Shown in pieces: positions 3,291-37,559 of a DNA stretch of 64,000 nucleotides. The notes under the pieces were generated by a model. The model saw nothing but the letters and a program-made list of their open reading frames with translations, did no database searches and had not been told where the DNA came from. Origin of the DNA: a virus. Every line of letters begins with the position of its first letter. Position 1 is the first letter of the stretch. The stretch is from IMG/VR virus record IMGVR_UViG_3300037130_000236. One strand, given 5' to 3'. The position numbers were made by a program, and so were the translations under genes.

Positions 3291-3502
3291 AGCACTCCTT
3301 TGAAAACAGGCGGATGCTTGAAACGCTGGCAAGCGCCTGACTCCCGATGAAGGTGTGCCTGGCCGGTGTACCGGCAACGCCAGCACACGCGGCGCCAGTC
3401 GGATGACTTGACGCCGCGCAGAAGCCACCACCAGAACTGGGAGTTGAACGGCCAGTGGTGGCGTTTGATGACCTTGTGGGGTTCCCAAAAGAGCTTAGGC
3501 AT
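3287..3502 (-). CDS. Hypothetical Trp/Arg-rich protein
   Basis: Overlaps the ligase stop; tiles. Confidence 0.45.
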   Translation of the reverse strand: MPKLFWEPHKVIKRHHWPFNSQFWWWLLRGVKSSDWRRVCWRCRYTGQAHLHRESGACQRFKHPPVFKGVL

Positions 3503-4589
3503 CGTCCTCGTCGGTCGTACTCTGCTTGAACTTCAGGGTGTCGTAGGCGTCGGCTGCATCCTTGTCTGCGCGCGGTCCCTTGTAGACCGGCTGGAAGAGC
3601 GAGCCGCCTGGGAAGGCATAGAGGTATTCAACCTCCACGATGTTGCCGGCCTCGGGAACCTCATAGTTGGCCGGGATCGTGACATTGCCTACTGTTCTGA
3701 CCCAGGTCGCATCCTGAACAAGGCCGACCTCGACCGAACGCTTGCCTTGGTTCTGCTGAATGACTTGACAGGTTGCCGAGCCCTTGAACTTGAACTTGAG
3801 CTGGTTGCCGCCGGAGTTCGGCCGGCCGGGCACGTACCTGGAGCCCAGCTTCTTGAAGACCACGCCTTCACCGCGCTCGGCTTTGATCTTGTCGAAGAGG
3901 GCGCGCTTGGTCTCGGGTGTGTAAGCCGTCGTCAGGAACCCGATCGCCGGCAAGGATGTCGTCCCCAACAGGCCCTCCAACAATGACCAGCGGTTCTCAA
4001 CAGGCATGCCGGTCGTATCCTGGCCGCCGTAACGAAGGACATCGAAGGGCCAGTACACGTCGCCAATCGCTTCGCCGTCGAGGATGAAGTCAGCATCCCG
4101 CTTGGTGCGAAGACTCAGAACGCCGGCGGCGATGGACTGGGAAACAGCAACGATCAAACCCTTGCGGTTGCCGCCGGTGATTTGGTCACCAACGCGCGTG
4201 ACAAACTGACGGACGCCGTCCTTTTTCTCCTGCATGCAGTAGTTCTCGCTGTCGAGCAGAAACTCCACCTGCTCTTCATCGACAGCGTTCAGGAGCTGCG
4301 GAATCAACCCGCTCTGCTGGCCAGCTAGCTCGCTGCCGGCGTAGGGCGTGCCCTCTTCGCCCTCGGAATAGCCTTTGCCCTTCTTCTCGGCTACGAGCTT
4401 GTCGTAGACCTTCTGTGCCGCGGCCAGGGCTACCGGCGTTGCGGTCTTGCTTCCGCTGTTCAGCGTCGAACCCCGCCGACCGTACTGGAAATTGACAACA
4501 TATCCGTTGTCTTTCTCCTCGATCTGGGCGTGGTAAACCTTGTCAGAGCTGCCGTCGCGGTACGCGAGGCTGATTGACTGCACACTCAT
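3495..4589 (-). CDS. WGR-domain / ATP-dependent DNA ligase fusion
   Basis: N-terminal SDKVY...QYGRRG (WGR-like); ligase motifs EKKDG, LDGE, FDVL, EGVVFK, KFK; C-terminal OB fold. Confidence 0.85.
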   Translation of the reverse strand: MSVQSISLAYRDGSSDKVYHAQIEEKDNGYVVNFQYGRRGSTLNSGSKTATPVALAAAQKVYDKLVAEKKGKGYSEGEEGTPYAGSELAGQQSGLIPQLLNAVDEEQVEFLLDSENYCMQEKKDGVRQFVTRVGDQITGGNRKGLIVAVSQSIAAGVLSLRTKRDADFILDGEAIGDVYWPFDVLRYGGQDTTGMPVENRWSLLEGLLGTTSLPAIGFLTTAYTPETKRALFDKIKAERGEGVVFKKLGSRYVPGRPNSGGNQLKFKFKGSATCQVIQQNQGKRSVEVGLVQDATWVRTVGNVTIPANYEVPEAGNIVEVEYLYAFPGGSLFQPVYKGPRADKDAADAYDTLKFKQSTTDEDDA

Positions 4590-19356: not shown

Positions 19357-19536
19357 TTAGGCTTGCTCTGCAGGTAGAGGTGGCGCAACCAACCCGCGCT
19401 TCTCCCACTCCTCGCGGCAGACGGGATGATAGATCCACCACTTGGCTATCTCAGGCGGATCGTTCTCCTGAGCGTACTTGCGGAAATCGGCCTCTTCCGC
19501 CGGGTCGAGCTGGCGAAACAGAATCTCTTGCAGCAT
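19357..19536 (-). CDS. Small hypothetical protein (59 aa) overlapping the ThiF 3' end
   Basis: Manual translation MLQEILFRQLDPAEEADFRKYAQENDPPEIAKWWIYHPVCREEWEKRG...; GAGG RBS; below the ORF-track cutoff. Confidence 0.6.
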   Translation of the reverse strand: MLQEILFRQLDPAEEADFRKYAQENDPPEIAKWWIYHPVCREEWEKRGLVAPPLPAEQA

Positions 19537-20278
19537 GTTTCCTCTTGCGTTCGCACTGGGTCACCGGTATAGGCGCCATCTGGCCGGTGGCGAGGTTGAC
19601 GAAGCCTCCTTGATAGGAAACCTCGCGGTGCCTGAACAGCCGCGCCAGCAAAGCGAGCGCGTGATTGGCCAGCACCTGGTTCACAAAGGGCTCCTGTCGT
19701 TTCAGCGCCTCGACGGAGCTGCAGGAGGGCAGAGTGTCCGAACCGTCCAGTCTGGGATCGAGGATCTCCGGGTAGAGTTCCGCGACCGTGAGCAGACGGT
19801 ACTTGGCATGCTGATTGCGCCGGTTCCGGGGCTGGCCCAGAACGAACTGACCGTTGTCGGCATTGTTCCCGATGTCCAGCCAGTAGAGCGTCTTCTTGAA
19901 GGCTGGAGACCGGCTGATGGCCAGCCTGGCCGCCCGCGTATCCACACAGGTGATCAGGATGTCTACAACCCCATCCGTCTTCTCTGTGAAGTGCCCGGTG
20001 GAGGCGTTCCATTTCAGTCCCCAGAAGAGGTTCAGCCTGTTGGCAATTACCAGTGACTTGTACAGGCCGATCTCCGACTGGGAGAAGGGCTGCCTTACAC
20101 AATTGGTGGAGGAGATGCGATCGCCATCAACGAAGATGACATTGAGACCAGGCTGTCCCTCGGCAAGGAGGGACTGGTTGATGTACGGCAAGCCGCCGGC
20201 CAGCGCACTGCCCGTCCCTCCACATCCCACCACTGCGACGCGAGTTCGAGAACACCTGTGATCCAGCTTGTGGTTCAA
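19451..20278 (-). CDS. PRTRC system ThiF (E1-like) protein
   Basis: VAVVGCGGTGS, DGDRISSTNCVRQPF, WLDIGN, PSCS...AL.RQ..FVN; probable TTG start overlapping the upstream TGA. Confidence 0.9.
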   Translation of the reverse strand: MNHKLDHRCSRTRVAVVGCGGTGSALAGGLPYINQSLLAEGQPGLNVIFVDGDRISSTNCVRQPFSQSEIGLYKSLVIANRLNLFWGLKWNASTGHFTEKTDGVVDILITCVDTRAARLAISRSPAFKKTLYWLDIGNNADNGQFVLGQPRNRRNQHAKYRLLTVAELYPEILDPRLDGSDTLPSCSSVEALKRQEPFVNQVLANHALALLARLFRHREVSYQGGFVNLATGQMAPIPVTQCERKRKHAARDSVSPARPGGRGRFPQVRSGERSA

Positions 20279-20565
20279 GGGATTGCCACCGATCTCTTGA
20301 CTCGCTTGTACTTGTTGCGAAGACGCAGCCTCTGCTTGTTGAAGATTGTGATCGTTAACCGCGAGCCCATGTTCAGAAGAGAGAATTCCATCTTCTCGAC
20401 CAGGGCGTAGTGAAGGCTCACCCCAGTCGTTAGATCGACCAGCGGATACTTGCCCGTGGTCTTGATGTAGAAGCTGCCTTTGCACTCCAGGATGGTTCCG
20501 ATTTCAAAGTCCTGAAAGCGATAACGCAACCCAACGGTAACAGCGATTGTGTTCTTCATTGGCAT
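20275..20565 (-). CDS. Hypothetical protein in the slot between PRTRC B and ThiF
   Basis: Coupled at both ends; no JAB (ExnHxH...D) motif. Confidence 0.55.
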   Translation of the reverse strand: MPMKNTIAVTVGLRYRFQDFEIGTILECKGSFYIKTTGKYPLVDLTTGVSLHYALVEKMEFSLLNMGSRLTITIFNKQRLRLRNKYKRVKRSVAIP

Positions 20566-23295: not shown

Positions 23296-24483
23296 CTATA
23301 GATCGGTTACACCGGAACGGTGGCCGCCAAGCTCAGTCCTGAATCGGATCTGACCTTTGAATTCCTCCGGCCGGTTCCAATCGAACAGACACGGATCACT
23401 CAGGTTGTAAAAGGGATTGATTTCCAACAGCTTGACACCGTACTGGTTATAGCTGTCAGAAAGACTCCGCCGGCGCTTGATGAACACATCGAAGACTACT
23501 GAATCGAGATGAGAAGCATCTCGCAATTCCTTGTCAAAGAACTGCTCGATCGCCCACTTGATGCCGGCGGCGTCTTCGGTAATCTCCGAGTACACTCCGC
23601 GGTAGTAGTATTGGCTGATCCCGACGAGCTTGCGGTCCTGCATGAAGCAACGGAACTCTGACCACTCGGGCAGGTCCAGACCTTCACGAATCCAAACACT
23701 GGGCGGGTAGTTCATGGCGATCTGCATGTGCAGGTCGTCATAGATGCGCTCGGAACAGCAGGTCAGGAGATCGAAAGCCATCTGGCCTGAGGTGATCTGG
23801 CCATTTGGCAACTGAGCGCCTTCGCCGAGGCTACATCCCCAGTAGAAAGCATCCTTCGGACTGCGCGAGCCAAGGCGGACAAAGATACCCTTTGGAAACT
23901 GCTGAACGGCCTTGTCCAGCCGTGCGATCAGGTGATCCTTTACCGTCTCGTGGTTCTCGGGCACACCCTCGGTAAAGCCTTCGCCCAGCTCGATGATGTA
24001 GCTGCCCATGACGCGCGCTTCTTCCAGGGTCATCTGAACCCTTACTGAGGGAACCGACAAGCTGTGCAAAGCGTTCGGCCAGCTCTCTATGTAGGTCGGC
24101 CATGACACATCCCAGATGGGTCCCTTGGGCTTGTATCTCTCCGACTCGGGCTTCTTCAACCACTCTTCCCCGGCGGCTATACTTGCCTTCATCATGGCAA
24201 GAGAAAACTCATGGCGCTCTGGTGAACCAGGCGCGCCGAACTCTGCGAACCGATCTGTCGAGGGGTCGTAGTCACTCATGTCAGGAATATCTTCCTGATG
24301 TGCAACGGCGCCGCCGGTACGGCCGCACCCTTCGCAAGGATGGCTGGTGTGGGATAAACAGCCGACATGGCTGCATGGTTCACCCGGCTCAAGCGTTATC
24401 GCTGTGGTTAAACCAGCGATCCGCTCCTGCTCCCGCCACCATTCCGGGGGATGAGTGTGTTCGTTCATTGGGGTGTCTGCCAT
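23296..24483 (-). CDS. Cdc123/R2K-like ATP-grasp protein with an N-terminal Cys/His module
   Basis: FVRLGSRSPKDA, EFRCF...LVGISQY, VFDV, LLEINPF, SDPCLFDW; N-terminal PCSHVGCLSHTSHPCEGCGR. Confidence 0.8.
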   Translation of the reverse strand: MADTPMNEHTHPPEWWREQERIAGLTTAITLEPGEPCSHVGCLSHTSHPCEGCGRTGGAVAHQEDIPDMSDYDPSTDRFAEFGAPGSPERHEFSLAMMKASIAAGEEWLKKPESERYKPKGPIWDVSWPTYIESWPNALHSLSVPSVRVQMTLEEARVMGSYIIELGEGFTEGVPENHETVKDHLIARLDKAVQQFPKGIFVRLGSRSPKDAFYWGCSLGEGAQLPNGQITSGQMAFDLLTCCSERIYDDLHMQIAMNYPPSVWIREGLDLPEWSEFRCFMQDRKLVGISQYYYRGVYSEITEDAAGIKWAIEQFFDKELRDASHLDSVVFDVFIKRRRSLSDSYNQYGVKLLEINPFYNLSDPCLFDWNRPEEFKGQIRFRTELGGHRSGVTDL

Positions 24484-24497
24484 GTTTCTCCAAAGTT

Positions 24498-24580
24498 TGA
24501 CGGCGGTTGGATTCGAACCCACGAAGGCTTGAGCCAGCAGTTTTGCAGATTGCCGTGTTTGACCACTTCGCTACCGCACG
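24498..24580 (-). pseudogene. Degenerate tRNA with a Tyr-type body and GCA (Cys) anticodon
   Basis: TAGCGAAGTGGTCAAAC D arm, CTGCAAA loop, long variable arm, GGTTCGAATCC; mismatches in the acceptor, D, anticodon and T stems; no CCA. Confidence 0.65.
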
Positions 24581-29962: not shown

Positions 29963-30088
29963 TGGCCTTTTTCCTCTCAGCTAATATCAGGCCGGAAGAT
30001 GGCCGTATTGAGGATAGGGGAAAGCCCCTATGAATCTTTTGTGACATGGAATACATGATGTTTCTGTATAATGCGCGTCCGGCCTGCT

Positions 30089-30355
30089 GGGCGCCCGAAG
30101 GCGCCCTTCTGTTGCCAGGCCAAGCAGACTTGGCCCCGTCTAGTCTTTCGGACTAGACAGCAGCAAGAACGCCCAGGGTGTTCTCCGCGGCCGTGGCCGG
30201 TTCGAAGACCTCAAACGTCATGCTGGCGACATACCCAGTGTTGGCATATATGCGTCTGTGTGTCCTTCTGCCGATCCAAAGATCGACACGGCAGCCACAC
30301 CACCCGGCTCGTCATCTCTATCCGTCACTGATTCCGTCGAAACCGTGACGGGCCC
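30089..30355 (-). ncRNA. ssrA: tmRNA coding piece (permuted gene); 3' limit approximate
   Basis: 5' GGGCCCGTCACGGTTTCGACGG, pseudoknot CTGCC/TGTC/GGCAG/GACA, resume context CATATAT-GCC, tag ANTGYVASMTFEVFEPATAAENTLGVLAAV* (30245-30153), stop inside the GTCTAGTC-CGAAA-GACTAGAC hairpin. Confidence 0.85.
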
Positions 30356-30421
30356 ACCAAAGCCCTCTCTGACTTACATTCCCCCGAAGTTCGGTGAACT
30401 TCAGCTAAAGCATGAGGGCTT

Positions 30422-30490
30422 TGGTGGACCCGGAGGGAATCGAACCCTCGTCCGAAATCGTGAAGACGATCTGTCTTCTCACGAGCGTTA
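30422..30490 (-). ncRNA. ssrA: tmRNA acceptor piece (permuted gene); 5' limit unknown
   Basis: ...GGACGAGGGTTCGATTCCCTCCGGGTCCACCA; pairs with GGGCCCG at 30355 to give a 7-bp stem with G3-U70; GCTCGT pairs with ACGAGC of the coding piece. Confidence 0.88.
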
Positions 30491-30890
30491 TACTCCCCAT
30501 TCCTGGGGAAACTTGATGCGGGAGACTCTCGCCAGTGAGCCTTTAATCAACTTTGGAGCCGGTTCTTTCCGGAATCTCCACGGCCTGACCCGCATCTGTG
30601 GGCACAGTGTCAACGTTTTTATCGTGGTGTGCGTCACCCACCTGGTGCCTTGTTCCGTGCCCAATTTGCTTTGGGTGCAGCCAAAGCCTCGTCCGCTGTG
30701 TGTCGAAGGTACTTCCGTCTGGGCTACTTTGCGTTTCGAACTGAATCTACTTTGCGTTTGGCCTACTCTTGGTTTCCCGTGCACCGGTCAGCCACGAAGT
30801 CCTTGCAGTCAACGCCTTTCAGCTCCTGCTCTGACTTCGCCGGCGGGAATATCAACCCGTCGCCCGCTACCCATCCGCACCCAAACTCGA

Positions 30891-32445: not shown

Positions 32446-32519
32446 GGGTCTCCTTGTCTGGCTACAACCAGATTGAACTGTGAGCTTGCAAATTGGGATA
32501 AGGGAAACTGCTTAGGTCT

Positions 32520-32662
32520 TGGGGGAGATGGCAGGATTTGAACCTGCAATTCCCGGGTCAGCTGCATTGCCCCGCAGCGTTACCGCTCTCGGTCACCATG
32601 CGTGACCCAGGAAACCGGCGCAAGACCGGCGGGCTATCCGATACCACTGCCAATCATCTCCC
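32520..32662 (-). ncRNA. 143-nt tRNA-like RNA with a His-type G-1:C73 acceptor and greatly expanded core
   Basis: GGGAGATG/CATCTCCC 8-bp stem + CCA; GCAGG-TTCAAAT-CCTGC T arm; AGTGGTA D-like loop; ~66-nt extra multibranch closed by TTCCTGGGTCA/TGACCCGGGAA. Confidence 0.75.
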
Positions 32663-32666
32663 ACAT

Positions 32667-33011
32667 CTATTCTGGCAGCTCTTGATCGATCAGCTCTGCC
32701 AGCTCGATGTTCCGGGCGCTCGCCGCGCGCAGAAATGCTTTCGATGCGTCTTCCATCTCTAATGCGGCATCGTATTCCGCATCGCCAGAGTCGCCTTCCT
32801 TGGCCACATCGAACCTCTTGATGGCCTTGATCAGGCTTTTCGCTTCGTCTAGCATGGAGGCTTCCTCATCATCTGAAGGGTGTGGCGGAACAAATACATG
32901 GCCACAGTTTTGGCACGCTTGGCCGGCCACGGCCTCAAGAGGGATTTCCAGTCCACAGTCTGGGCAAACACCATCTTGATAACTGCGAATGATCGAAATG
33001 CTTTCCGACAT
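32667..33011 (-). CDS. Hypothetical protein with a double CxxC zinc ribbon
   Basis: CPDCG...CQNCG. Confidence 0.5.
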   Translation of the reverse strand: MSESISIIRSYQDGVCPDCGLEIPLEAVAGQACQNCGHVFVPPHPSDDEEASMLDEAKSLIKAIKRFDVAKEGDSGDAEYDAALEMEDASKAFLRAASARNIELAELIDQELPE

Positions 33012-34182: not shown

Positions 34183-34686
34183 TCACGCCGCAGTTTGTTC
34201 CAGCGCCACCACTCCAGAAATGCCTTGATCATTGCGCTCCCAACTCTTGTTCGCCATCAGGTCAAGCCAGTACATCCGCTCGGCCATCAGAATCCGGCCC
34301 AGCCAGTTCGTGCCTTGGCCATTGCAGACACCGTAGAAATAGTCATGCCAGGTGTTGCCCTCAACAAGATCGTGAGGGAAGGTATTCACCAGCTGAATGC
34401 GAATGTCCTTGTTCTGGGCGAACTTGGCATGAACCACCTCGGACATGACGATCAGACTGATCTCTTTCCAGTCCGGCCGCGTGAGATGCTTCAGCTCCTT
34501 CGAAAGCTTCTTGGCGCCTTTGCCATCCGTGCTCTCGTACTTGAGCCTGTATTCCTCGTCCCGCGGCAACAATTTGGCTGCCTGATACGCACTCTCGCTG
34601 TTTTGGTACAGGTGGCCGCTATGCCAGAGCGGCGCCTCATGGAAGTTCGACAACCAACGATATTCGCCCATGAATGAATCGATCAT
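34183..34686 (-). CDS. NADAR (YbiA-like) family protein
   Basis: WLSNF, SESAYQAAK, KFAQN, LVEGNTWHDYFYG..NGQGTNWLGRILM. Confidence 0.92.
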   Translation of the reverse strand: MIDSFMGEYRWLSNFHEAPLWHSGHLYQNSESAYQAAKLLPRDEEYRLKYESTDGKGAKKLSKELKHLTRPDWKEISLIVMSEVVHAKFAQNKDIRIQLVNTFPHDLVEGNTWHDYFYGVCNGQGTNWLGRILMAERMYWLDLMANKSWERNDQGISGVVALEQTAA

Positions 34687-35525: not shown

Positions 35526-35615
35526 TGGCAGGGGCGACAGGATTTGAACCTGCAGTGAACTTGCGTTCCGTGGCTTTGGAGACCACTGTGCCGAACCGGA
35601 TTGCACATCACCCCT
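35526..35615 (-). tRNA. tRNA-Trp(CCA) with an atypical long variable arm, CCA encoded
   Basis: AGGGGTG/CGCCCCT, GTGC/GCAC D stem, GTGGT-CTCCAAA-GCCAC, GAAC-GCAA-GTTC variable hairpin, G73-CCA. Confidence 0.88.
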
Positions 35616-37428: not shown

Positions 37429-37559
37429 TGGTGGGGCAAGGAGGACTTGAACCTCCATGCAACGCCGGTCATGCAGCCCGGCTGCGCCTATCCTGCAGGG
37501 TTGAGCACTGTTGCGCCGGATTATCGGTCCGGTGTGTCTACCAGTTTCACCATCGCCCC
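37429..37559 (-). ncRNA. 131-nt tRNA-like RNA: Leu-type body, GAT anticodon, 59-nt variable region, CCA encoded
   Basis: GGGGCGA/TTGCCCC-A-CCA; GTG-AAACTGGTAGA-CAC D arm; CCGGA-CCGATAA-TCCGG; GGAGG-TTCAAGT-CCTCC. Confidence 0.82.

Follow-up and report, generated by a model that had tools for sequence, protein, structure and literature searches.

A 143-nt tRNA-shaped gene is located on the minus strand of the window (the whole 64,000-nt stretch of phage DNA that was analysed), at positions 32520-32662, and its outline can be read directly from the sequence. Its parts and immediate borders are given below in the order of transcription; RNA positions 1-143 correspond to window positions 32662 down to 32520.

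32663-32669, minus strand: upstream junction, the TAG stop of a zinc-ribbon ORF and 4 nt (AUGU) before G-1
32655-32662, minus strand: 5' strand of the acceptor stem, GGGAGAUG (G-1 and positions 1-7; RNA 1-8), in perfect pairing with 32523-32530
RNA 9-10: linker AU
32631-32652, minus strand: D arm (RNA 11-32), stem (U/G)GGC/GCCC, 14-nt loop ending in GGAUA
32614-32630, minus strand: hairpin at the anticodon position (RNA 33-49), made of G26, a CCGGU/GCCGG stem, the loop CUUGC and U44
32550-32613, minus strand: variable arm of 64 nt (RNA 50-113), beginning with an 11-bp helix, UUCCUGGGUCA/UGACCCGGGAA
RNA 114-115: linker UU
32531-32547, minus strand: T arm GCAGG-UUCAAAU-CCUGC (RNA 116-132)
32523-32530, minus strand: 3' strand of the acceptor stem, CAUCUCCC (positions 66-72 and C73; RNA 133-140)
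32520-32522, minus strand: encoded 3' CCA (RNA 141-143)
32446-32519, minus strand: spacer of 74 nt, conserved, containing a small hairpin and, ahead of the ATG of a 193-aa gene, AAGGAG

The acceptor stem GGGAGAUG/CAUCUCCC consists of eight perfect pairs, and the CCA follows directly, with no unpaired discriminator base; the 5' strand is invariant in 12 of 12 distinct copies of the element (see below). The UUCRANY-type T loop and the GG of the D loop are likewise present and invariant across copies. Positions 15-23 of the D loop form a variable patch, and the D stem of the window copy contains a U10.C25 mismatch, which is G-C in other copies. The initial annotation of this DNA had described an 8-bp acceptor stem with G-1:C73, a CCA end and a T arm, and a core about 66 nt beyond the size of a tRNA, and both parts of this description are correct, the RNA being 66 nt longer than the 77-nt tRNA-His. 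Since all four tRNAs of the same cluster that are recognised by standard tools encode their CCA, the CCA of the element is probably its real 3' end, with C73 paired to G-1. The genuine tRNA-His of Acidobacteriaceae, which we examined for comparison, has the same G-1...C73-CCA layout, and this, together with the CCA ends of the cluster, makes a His-type reading of the acceptor end natural.

Standard detectors do not see the gene. Rfam RF00005 gives no match at the locus, either at the gathering score or at E<=1, ARAGORN makes no call there with or without intron mode, and none of the Rfam intron or ribozyme families match at E<=1. Genes of this kind are thus missed by tRNA finders and by Rfam, and phage genomes are probably under-annotated for them.

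The window corresponds to the part of a large phage genome that is devoted to replication and accessory functions; it has genes for a clamp loader, a sliding clamp, a Dda-like helicase, ligases, a ThiF-family protein and a D123-family ATP-grasp protein. The carrier is a large temperate phage of soil Acidobacteriaceae; the records closest to it are IMG/VR proviruses 124 kb and 178 kb in length, and a further copy of the element resides in a prophage within an Acidobacteriaceae MAG (G001). On one side of the element, the minus strand encodes tRNA-Leu, tRNA-Gln, Pth2, a response regulator, a permuted tmRNA and the 193-aa protein; on the other side follow, in order, the small zinc-ribbon ORF, a SpoU methylase and NADAR, and beyond NADAR come a tRNA-Trp whose extra arm measures 16 nt, an Endonuclease_NS protein and, at 131 nt, the second giant tRNA of this phage. 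We saw neither a promoter-like nor a convincing terminator-like site near the element, and, given the tight operon spacing, the RNA must be processed out of an operon transcript. Pfam, PHROG, PADLOC and Atlas offer no informative match for the neighbouring 193-aa, 146-aa and zinc-ribbon proteins. Genes for HisRS, Ro60 (TROVE) and canonical tRNA-His were not found in the proviruses G002 (58% complete) and G271 (83% complete). Farther away in the window, and all on the minus strand, are the D123-family ATP-grasp protein (23296-24522), the ThiF-family protein (19451-20485) and a WGR-domain ATP-dependent ligase (3495-4589) with a weak RNA_ligase match; these may possibly serve in modification or repair of protein or RNA.

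Copies, alleles and fold of the element

A covariance model built on three copies, combined with a 19-mer scan of metagenomes, recovered 15 full-length copies of the element, 12 of them distinct and all 143-144 nt long. They come from related proviruses, one Acidobacteriaceae MAG and metagenome contigs, and belong to two allele clades, A and B. Given 12 distinct copies, conservation of the tRNA-shaped locus, on which the initial annotation had staked its reading, is borne out.

Minimum free energy folds of three copies give a cloverleaf with a giant arm (z-scores from -3.3 to -3.8). Across the 12 distinct copies, 95.4% of the pair cells form standard pairs, as compared with 34-50% when the partners are slid, and the observed covariation score is reached by none of 500 shuffles, so that the tRNA-shaped structure exceeds chance. 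The basal part of the long helix contains two compensatory pairs, UA<->CG and GC<->AU. The acceptor, T, D and hairpin stems yield no covariation evidence, because all copies belong to one narrow phage lineage, and they are backed by their fit to the tRNA plan; one copy has a mismatch in the T stem. Covariation among homologues, which had been proposed as a check, thus gave compensatory changes in the long helix and nothing informative in the core stems.

The giant arm is simpler than first described. The initial annotation had an 11-bp helix closing several further hairpins; the helix is real, and the multi-hairpin junction is replaced, in the consensus folds of each clade, by a single unbranched irregular rod of about 23-24 bp. 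The three inner hairpins cannot form at the same time, since they have residues in common with each other or with the 11-bp helix: the GGUCA of GGUCAC is also part of that helix, and GCUGC runs into CGCU. In clade A the rod is built of 11+4+2+3+4 bp and ends in a GUAA-type tetraloop (AGCG-GUAA-CGCU), and in clade B of 13+3+3+4 bp with a 6-nt loop. The distal arms of the two alleles are unrelated in sequence, and both fold into rods of equal length. Within clade A, several substitutions in the arm disrupt pairs and none is compensated. The distal arm of this clade also shows more variation than neutral sites do: the window copy differs from the copy L001 at 6 of 42 distal-arm positions, against 4 of 158 neutral sites (p=0.007), and several of these changes break pairs. 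The clade A arm also contains a 13-codon frame, AUG GUG ACC ... AGC UGA (32564-32605, minus strand), which is lacking in clade B and which we judge to be there by chance.

Comparison of the two clades reveals a patchwork. Four-fold degenerate sites of three flanking genes differ at 20 of 223 positions (9%). The distal arm (44 columns) differs at 62% of positions (p=3e-14 against the four-fold sites), the 9-nt D-loop patch at 58% and the hairpin loop at 25%; the figures are 3% for the acceptor stem plus T arm, 1% for the D stem plus GGAUA, and 0% for the hairpin stem. Conservation of the core is no higher than that of the four-fold sites. Between the replaced patches, the 3' strand of the D stem, G26, the hairpin stem and most of the 5' strand of the arm base are almost unchanged. 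A search for tertiary or antisense pairing gave no co-varying complementarity of the distal arm with the D-loop patch or hairpin loop, or of these two with each other, and no significant match to the element elsewhere in the window except for a 17-mer spanning the T arm, which is common to the element and the phage tRNA-Trp (35538-35554).

A sliding comparison indicates that the genomes of the two clades are mosaic throughout, with blocks of 95-100% identity broken by short divergent tracts and indels. Among such tracts are 32865-32985, where an indel of about 150 nt falls inside the zinc-ribbon ORF, and 34430-34600, where a stretch of NADAR is 52-62% identical amid blocks of 95-100%. The simplest reading of the element is that a tract of about 100 nt may have been exchanged with a much more diverged homologue. 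Preservation of the core stems and of the total length inside the exchanged tract points to long-term constraint on the tRNA-like frame and to freedom in the tip of the arm.

The hairpin that occupies the anticodon position has an invariant stem, CCGGY/GCCGG, flanked by G26 and U44, and its register was set by canonical numbering from these two residues. Clade A closes the loop with U.G and has CUUGC (5 nt) in it; clade B closes it with C-G and has CUUGGC (6 nt), i.e., the alleles differ by an indel in the loop on an unchanged stem. The arm resembles that of the host tRNA-Pro(UGG), CCUGC-CUUGGGC-GCAGG, minus one or two loop bases. The loop had originally been read as UCUUGCG, with C33 and without GTG. 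There is indeed no GUG in it, and the 7-nt register is one option only: it is available in clade A alone, places C at both 33 and 37, and leaves no nucleotide 26. A 7-nt loop with U33 and a purine at position 37 is not found. Since the loop varies by an indel on an invariant stem, unlike an anticodon loop, decoding is unlikely, and the loop of 5 or 6 nt agrees with the proposal of a non-decoding RNA; from these sequence features, it is very unlikely that the element decodes codons.

The element has a narrow distribution. In a sister lineage, in which the 193-aa neighbour protein is 83% identical, the upstream ORF leads directly into the conserved spacer across a gap of just 81 nt, with no element there; judging by this arrangement, the sister lineage has an empty site, and the element is dispensable there. 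Contigs with more distant relatives of the neighbour gene do not have the element either; homologues of the 193-aa protein over the range of 42-83% identity all led to contigs that lack it. A covariance-model search of 151 genomes of the family Acidobacteriaceae and 151 genomes of the order found it in G001 alone; the next-best matches are ordinary Pro(UGG), Arg(UCU) and Ser tRNAs, and the two unpublished genomes in the family set, G004 and G027, gave only matches of ordinary tRNA length and are not used for any of our conclusions. Patterns representing the T/acceptor region (28-mer) and the D/hairpin region (19-mer) occur in this phage lineage only. Ten further metagenome contigs with the 19-mer have no match to the covariance model; the one of these that was inspected, L046, was rejected as a relative, as its sequence is a GC-rich terminator hairpin. 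L059 gave a weak, mismatched match.

Relation to known tRNA-like RNAs

The element does not fit RF00005, tRNA-Sec, allo-tRNA, tmRNA or YrlA, as it departs from each of these families in a defining feature. The nearest published concept is that of the irregular tRNAs with G-1 in Acidobacteria (PMC5389517). These RNAs, described by Mukai et al. in 2017 and comprising allo-tRNAs and 'G-1 tRNA1' species, share with the element the host phylum, the origin in peat or forest soil, the non-canonical cloverleaf and the long variable arm; some of them have G-1 and are charged by HisRS whatever their anticodon, and some are suspected of a regulatory role or of a link to conflict systems (PMC5389517). E. 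coli HisRS charged the irregular acidobacterial G-1 tRNAs more effectively than it charged tRNA-His, yet these RNAs did not insert histidine in vivo and are not used in translation (PMC5389517). Allo-tRNAs are defined by a 12-bp acceptor branch of the 8/4 or 9/3 type, and the Mukai RNAs have such a branch, ordinary size and 7-nt anticodon loops (PMC5389517). The element, by comparison, is carried by a phage; its branch is 8/5 (13 bp), its loop measures 5-6 nt, and its arm extends over 64 nt.

Bacterial tRNA-His resembles the element in the pairing of G-1 with C73, the encoded CCA and the 8-bp acceptor stem, and differs from it in having a GUG anticodon in a 7-nt loop and in lacking a class-II-like giant arm; tRNA-His was absent among the covariance-model matches that we examined. 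Class II tRNAs and tRNA-Sec also have an extra arm between the anticodon and T arms, and the 8/5 acceptor/T branch of tRNA-Sec is the same as the 8-bp acceptor stem and 5-bp T stem of the element. The extra arms of class II tRNAs and tRNA-Sec are roughly 3-9 bp long, and the arm of the element, at about 24 bp, is longer. Two further marks of tRNA-Sec, the anticodon UCA and a G73 that is left unpaired, are missing from the element, which has a CUUGC or CUUGGC loop and a paired C73.

Among phage RNAs, the RNAC of T4 (rnaC, species 1 RNA) is similar in several respects: it is a stable RNA of about 140 nt (annotated length, 139 nt) that ends a phage tRNA cluster, and it has a true T arm, a terminal closing helix and no assigned function (AF158101 annotation). 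Its interior architecture is different, and there is no encoded CCA at the annotated end. We reject T4 RNAC as a homologue of the element, since the model scores it at 20.7 bits with filters off, in a partial alignment that covers generic T-arm features only. In the T4 region 70908-71171 (L073, AF158101), rnaC has a z-score of -4.6 and a canonical T arm, and rnaD, at z = -0.8, has no structure beyond chance.

The phage tRNA-Tyr that acts against the defence systems Septu and retron-Eco7 provides a functional parallel. Both systems cleave the variable arm of tRNA-Tyr, and the phage tRNA-Tyr counters this as a resistant copy or decoy (PMC13096335). Similarity to the element consists in a class-II-type RNA of a phage, whose variable arm decides the outcome of defence; the decoy role of phage tRNA-Tyr is proposed, and these molecules are also working tRNAs that restore decoding, unlike, in our reading, the element (PMC13096335, PMC11555353).

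The tRNA-like domain of tmRNA is an example of chargeable tRNA mimicry without an anticodon. A second tmRNA-like device, one of the roles offered by the initial annotation, is nevertheless not what the element appears to be: it has no G3:U70 (the third pair is G-C or A-U by numbering), a hairpin fills the place of the anticodon arm, there is no conserved tag frame, and no Rfam tmRNA family matches at the locus. In YrlA, a bacterial Y RNA, a tRNA-like module sits on a Ro-binding stem, and the gene is adjacent to that for Ro60 (TROVE); this family is also rejected, because in the element the 5' and 3' ends themselves form the acceptor stem, and no Rfam match was found.

Possible roles of the RNA

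The main signal for charging by HisRS is the G-1:C73 pair; in some species, the enzyme recognises GUG in the anticodon as well. We favour, with moderate confidence, the explanation that the phage encodes, in this element, a tRNA mimic that does not decode, can be charged by HisRS and acts through its tRNA shape. The RNA would be cut by RNase P from the operon transcript in such a way that the additional G-1 is left in place, as in bacterial tRNA-His, and would then be trimmed at the 3' side to the encoded CCA; RNase P leaves an 8-bp acceptor stem only for tRNA-His and tRNA-Sec (PMC11143913). The HisRS of the host would recognise G-1:C73 and charge the RNA, which seems plausible by analogy. As the loop cannot present an anticodon, the charged RNA would not read codons, and its effect would come from the tRNA shape. 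The evidence that goes against this explanation is the restriction of all copies to one lineage, the empty site, a core that between clades is conserved no better than four-fold sites, the uncompensated changes in the arm and the lack of a GUG anticodon.

As to what such a mimic may do, the role that we prefer, with low confidence and by analogy with other phage tRNAs, is that of a decoy or competitor for host enzymes directed at tRNA. The targets might be defence nucleases, including the kind that cleaves variable arms, or acceptor-modifying toxins, and the long arm would be an exposed surface that is exchanged between phages. An amino-acid donor, which the initial annotation had offered beside the decoy, would be another candidate role. 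Nothing points to a link between the element and any particular defence system. A bolder version posits a whole class of phage tRNA mimics that are charged and never decode, with the hypertrophied arm serving as bait or shield against enzymes that act on class II arms or acceptor ends. We regard it as speculative and rather doubtful; if true, it would explain why the arm alleles, and the matching D-loop patches, are exchanged between near-identical phages.

Phage tRNAs are now known as weapons against bacterial defences that cleave tRNA, and, to our knowledge, oversized tRNA-like RNAs such as T4 RNAC have had no function assigned to them for fifty years. The locus described here is a clean, conserved case: G-1:C73 is a recognisable signal for charging, the loop rules out decoding, and the arm occurs naturally in two versions on near-identical phage backgrounds; charging, the binding partner of the arm and protection of the phage are therefore directly testable.

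It is unlikely, in our view, that the element is a relic, i.e., a phage tRNA gene that has been rearranged or is decaying, that may descend from a long-armed phage tRNA, and that is carried without function. Such an origin would account for the narrow spread (one of about 300 genomes searched in the order of Acidobacteriaceae), for the empty site in the sister lineage, for a core that is no better conserved than neutral sites, and for the structural blemishes, namely the uncompensated pair-breaking changes in the clade A arm, the T-stem mismatch in one copy and the D-stem U.C mismatch in the window copy. It sits badly with the preservation of helices, CCA, G-1:C73 and total length in both alleles despite 60% replacement of the distal arm, with the identity of the stems within the replaced tract, and with the two compensatory pairs in the basal helix; a decaying gene is not expected to keep a 24-bp rod in two unrelated sequences.

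The position of the element, 4 nt past one stop codon and 74 nt short of the following start codon, with no promoter or terminator nearby, is also what one would expect of a processing signal acting in cis, in which a tRNA-shaped RNase P site parts the upstream cistron of the operon from the downstream one and the RNA that is cut out does nothing further. Processing of tRNA-like structures within mRNAs is an established activity of RNase P (PMC11143913). A minihelix of acceptor and T stems would suffice for that purpose, however, leaving the GG of the D arm, the CCA, G-1:C73 and the 64-nt arm superfluous, and the sister lineage has the same two genes without the element; we hold this explanation to be distinctly improbable.

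Two further alternatives can be weighed against an exhaustive scan in which all internal segments were deleted in silico (about 1,170 variants per clade) and the products run through ARAGORN. When the arm is shortened, the clade A core is called as tRNA-Gln(UUG), with a 7-bp stem and C73, in 346 deletion variants; no clade B variant is ever given a 7-nt loop. A tRNA-His(GUG) call was obtained once in about 1,170 variants, and is taken as chance, and no consistent canonical tRNA emerges in either clade.

The first of the two is a working tRNA, which would, for instance, decode CAA/CAG via UUG and insert His or Gln, or, in clade B, would be a frameshift suppressor with an 8-nt loop, the giant arm being armour against host nucleases. 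The tRNA-Gln(UUG) calls agree with this, as do two precedents: in the second giant tRNA of this phage the loop has its normal 7 nt, with C where U33 is expected, and a tRNA-like domain of tmRNA with a large extension in the direction of the variable arm reportedly passes through the ribosome (Bessho et al. 2007, PNAS). On the other side, the 7-nt register demands C33 and a pyrimidine at 37 and leaves out nucleotide 26, the C-G closing pair and the extra G of clade B permit only loops of 6 or 8 nt, and an indel in the loop on an invariant stem is the opposite of what an anticodon loop should display, so that we see little chance of a decoding tRNA.

The second, an interrupted gene that would yield a normal tRNA once its insert had been spliced out, has next to no chance, even though the 66 additional nt make up a single compact module, closed by a helix, within the variable region: splicing, which the initial annotation had wished to see tested, finds no support in the deletion scan, which gave no consistent canonical tRNA and never a 7-nt loop in clade B, the intron mode of ARAGORN and the Rfam intron and ribozyme families (E<=1) are blank, 64 nt is far below the size of a group I intron, and the defective loop lies outside the insert.

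Other RNA genes of these phages

The permuted, two-piece tmRNA (30062-30514, minus strand) matches Rfam tmRNA_permuted with 70.7 bits and is 2 kb away from the element; its predicted tag is 30 aa long, ends in ...GVLAAV, and is kept in G001 with two substitutions. The tRNA-Trp(CCA) at 35526-35615 (minus strand), with its 16-nt extra arm, combines a class I identity with a class II body, and in clade B its place is taken by an ordinary tRNA-Thr(UGU) (L064, 10672-10747, minus strand).

The second giant tRNA, at 37429-37559 in the window and 13939-14070 in L064 (both minus strand), is 131 nt long in the window, with a Leu-like body, A73 and a 57-nt branched variable arm that is about 96% conserved between the clades. 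Clade A has GAU as its anticodon and clade B has ACG, and both retain C32 and C33. The pattern is the reverse of that seen in the element, and suggests, from the sequences of the two alleles, a design in which the anticodon may switch and charging may be independent of it.

In G001, about 25 matches to tRNA models, several of them long-arm tRNAs of 86-88 nt, are packed into 4.3 kb of contig C5 (707792-712099); this is a second dense tRNA array, possibly from another prophage.
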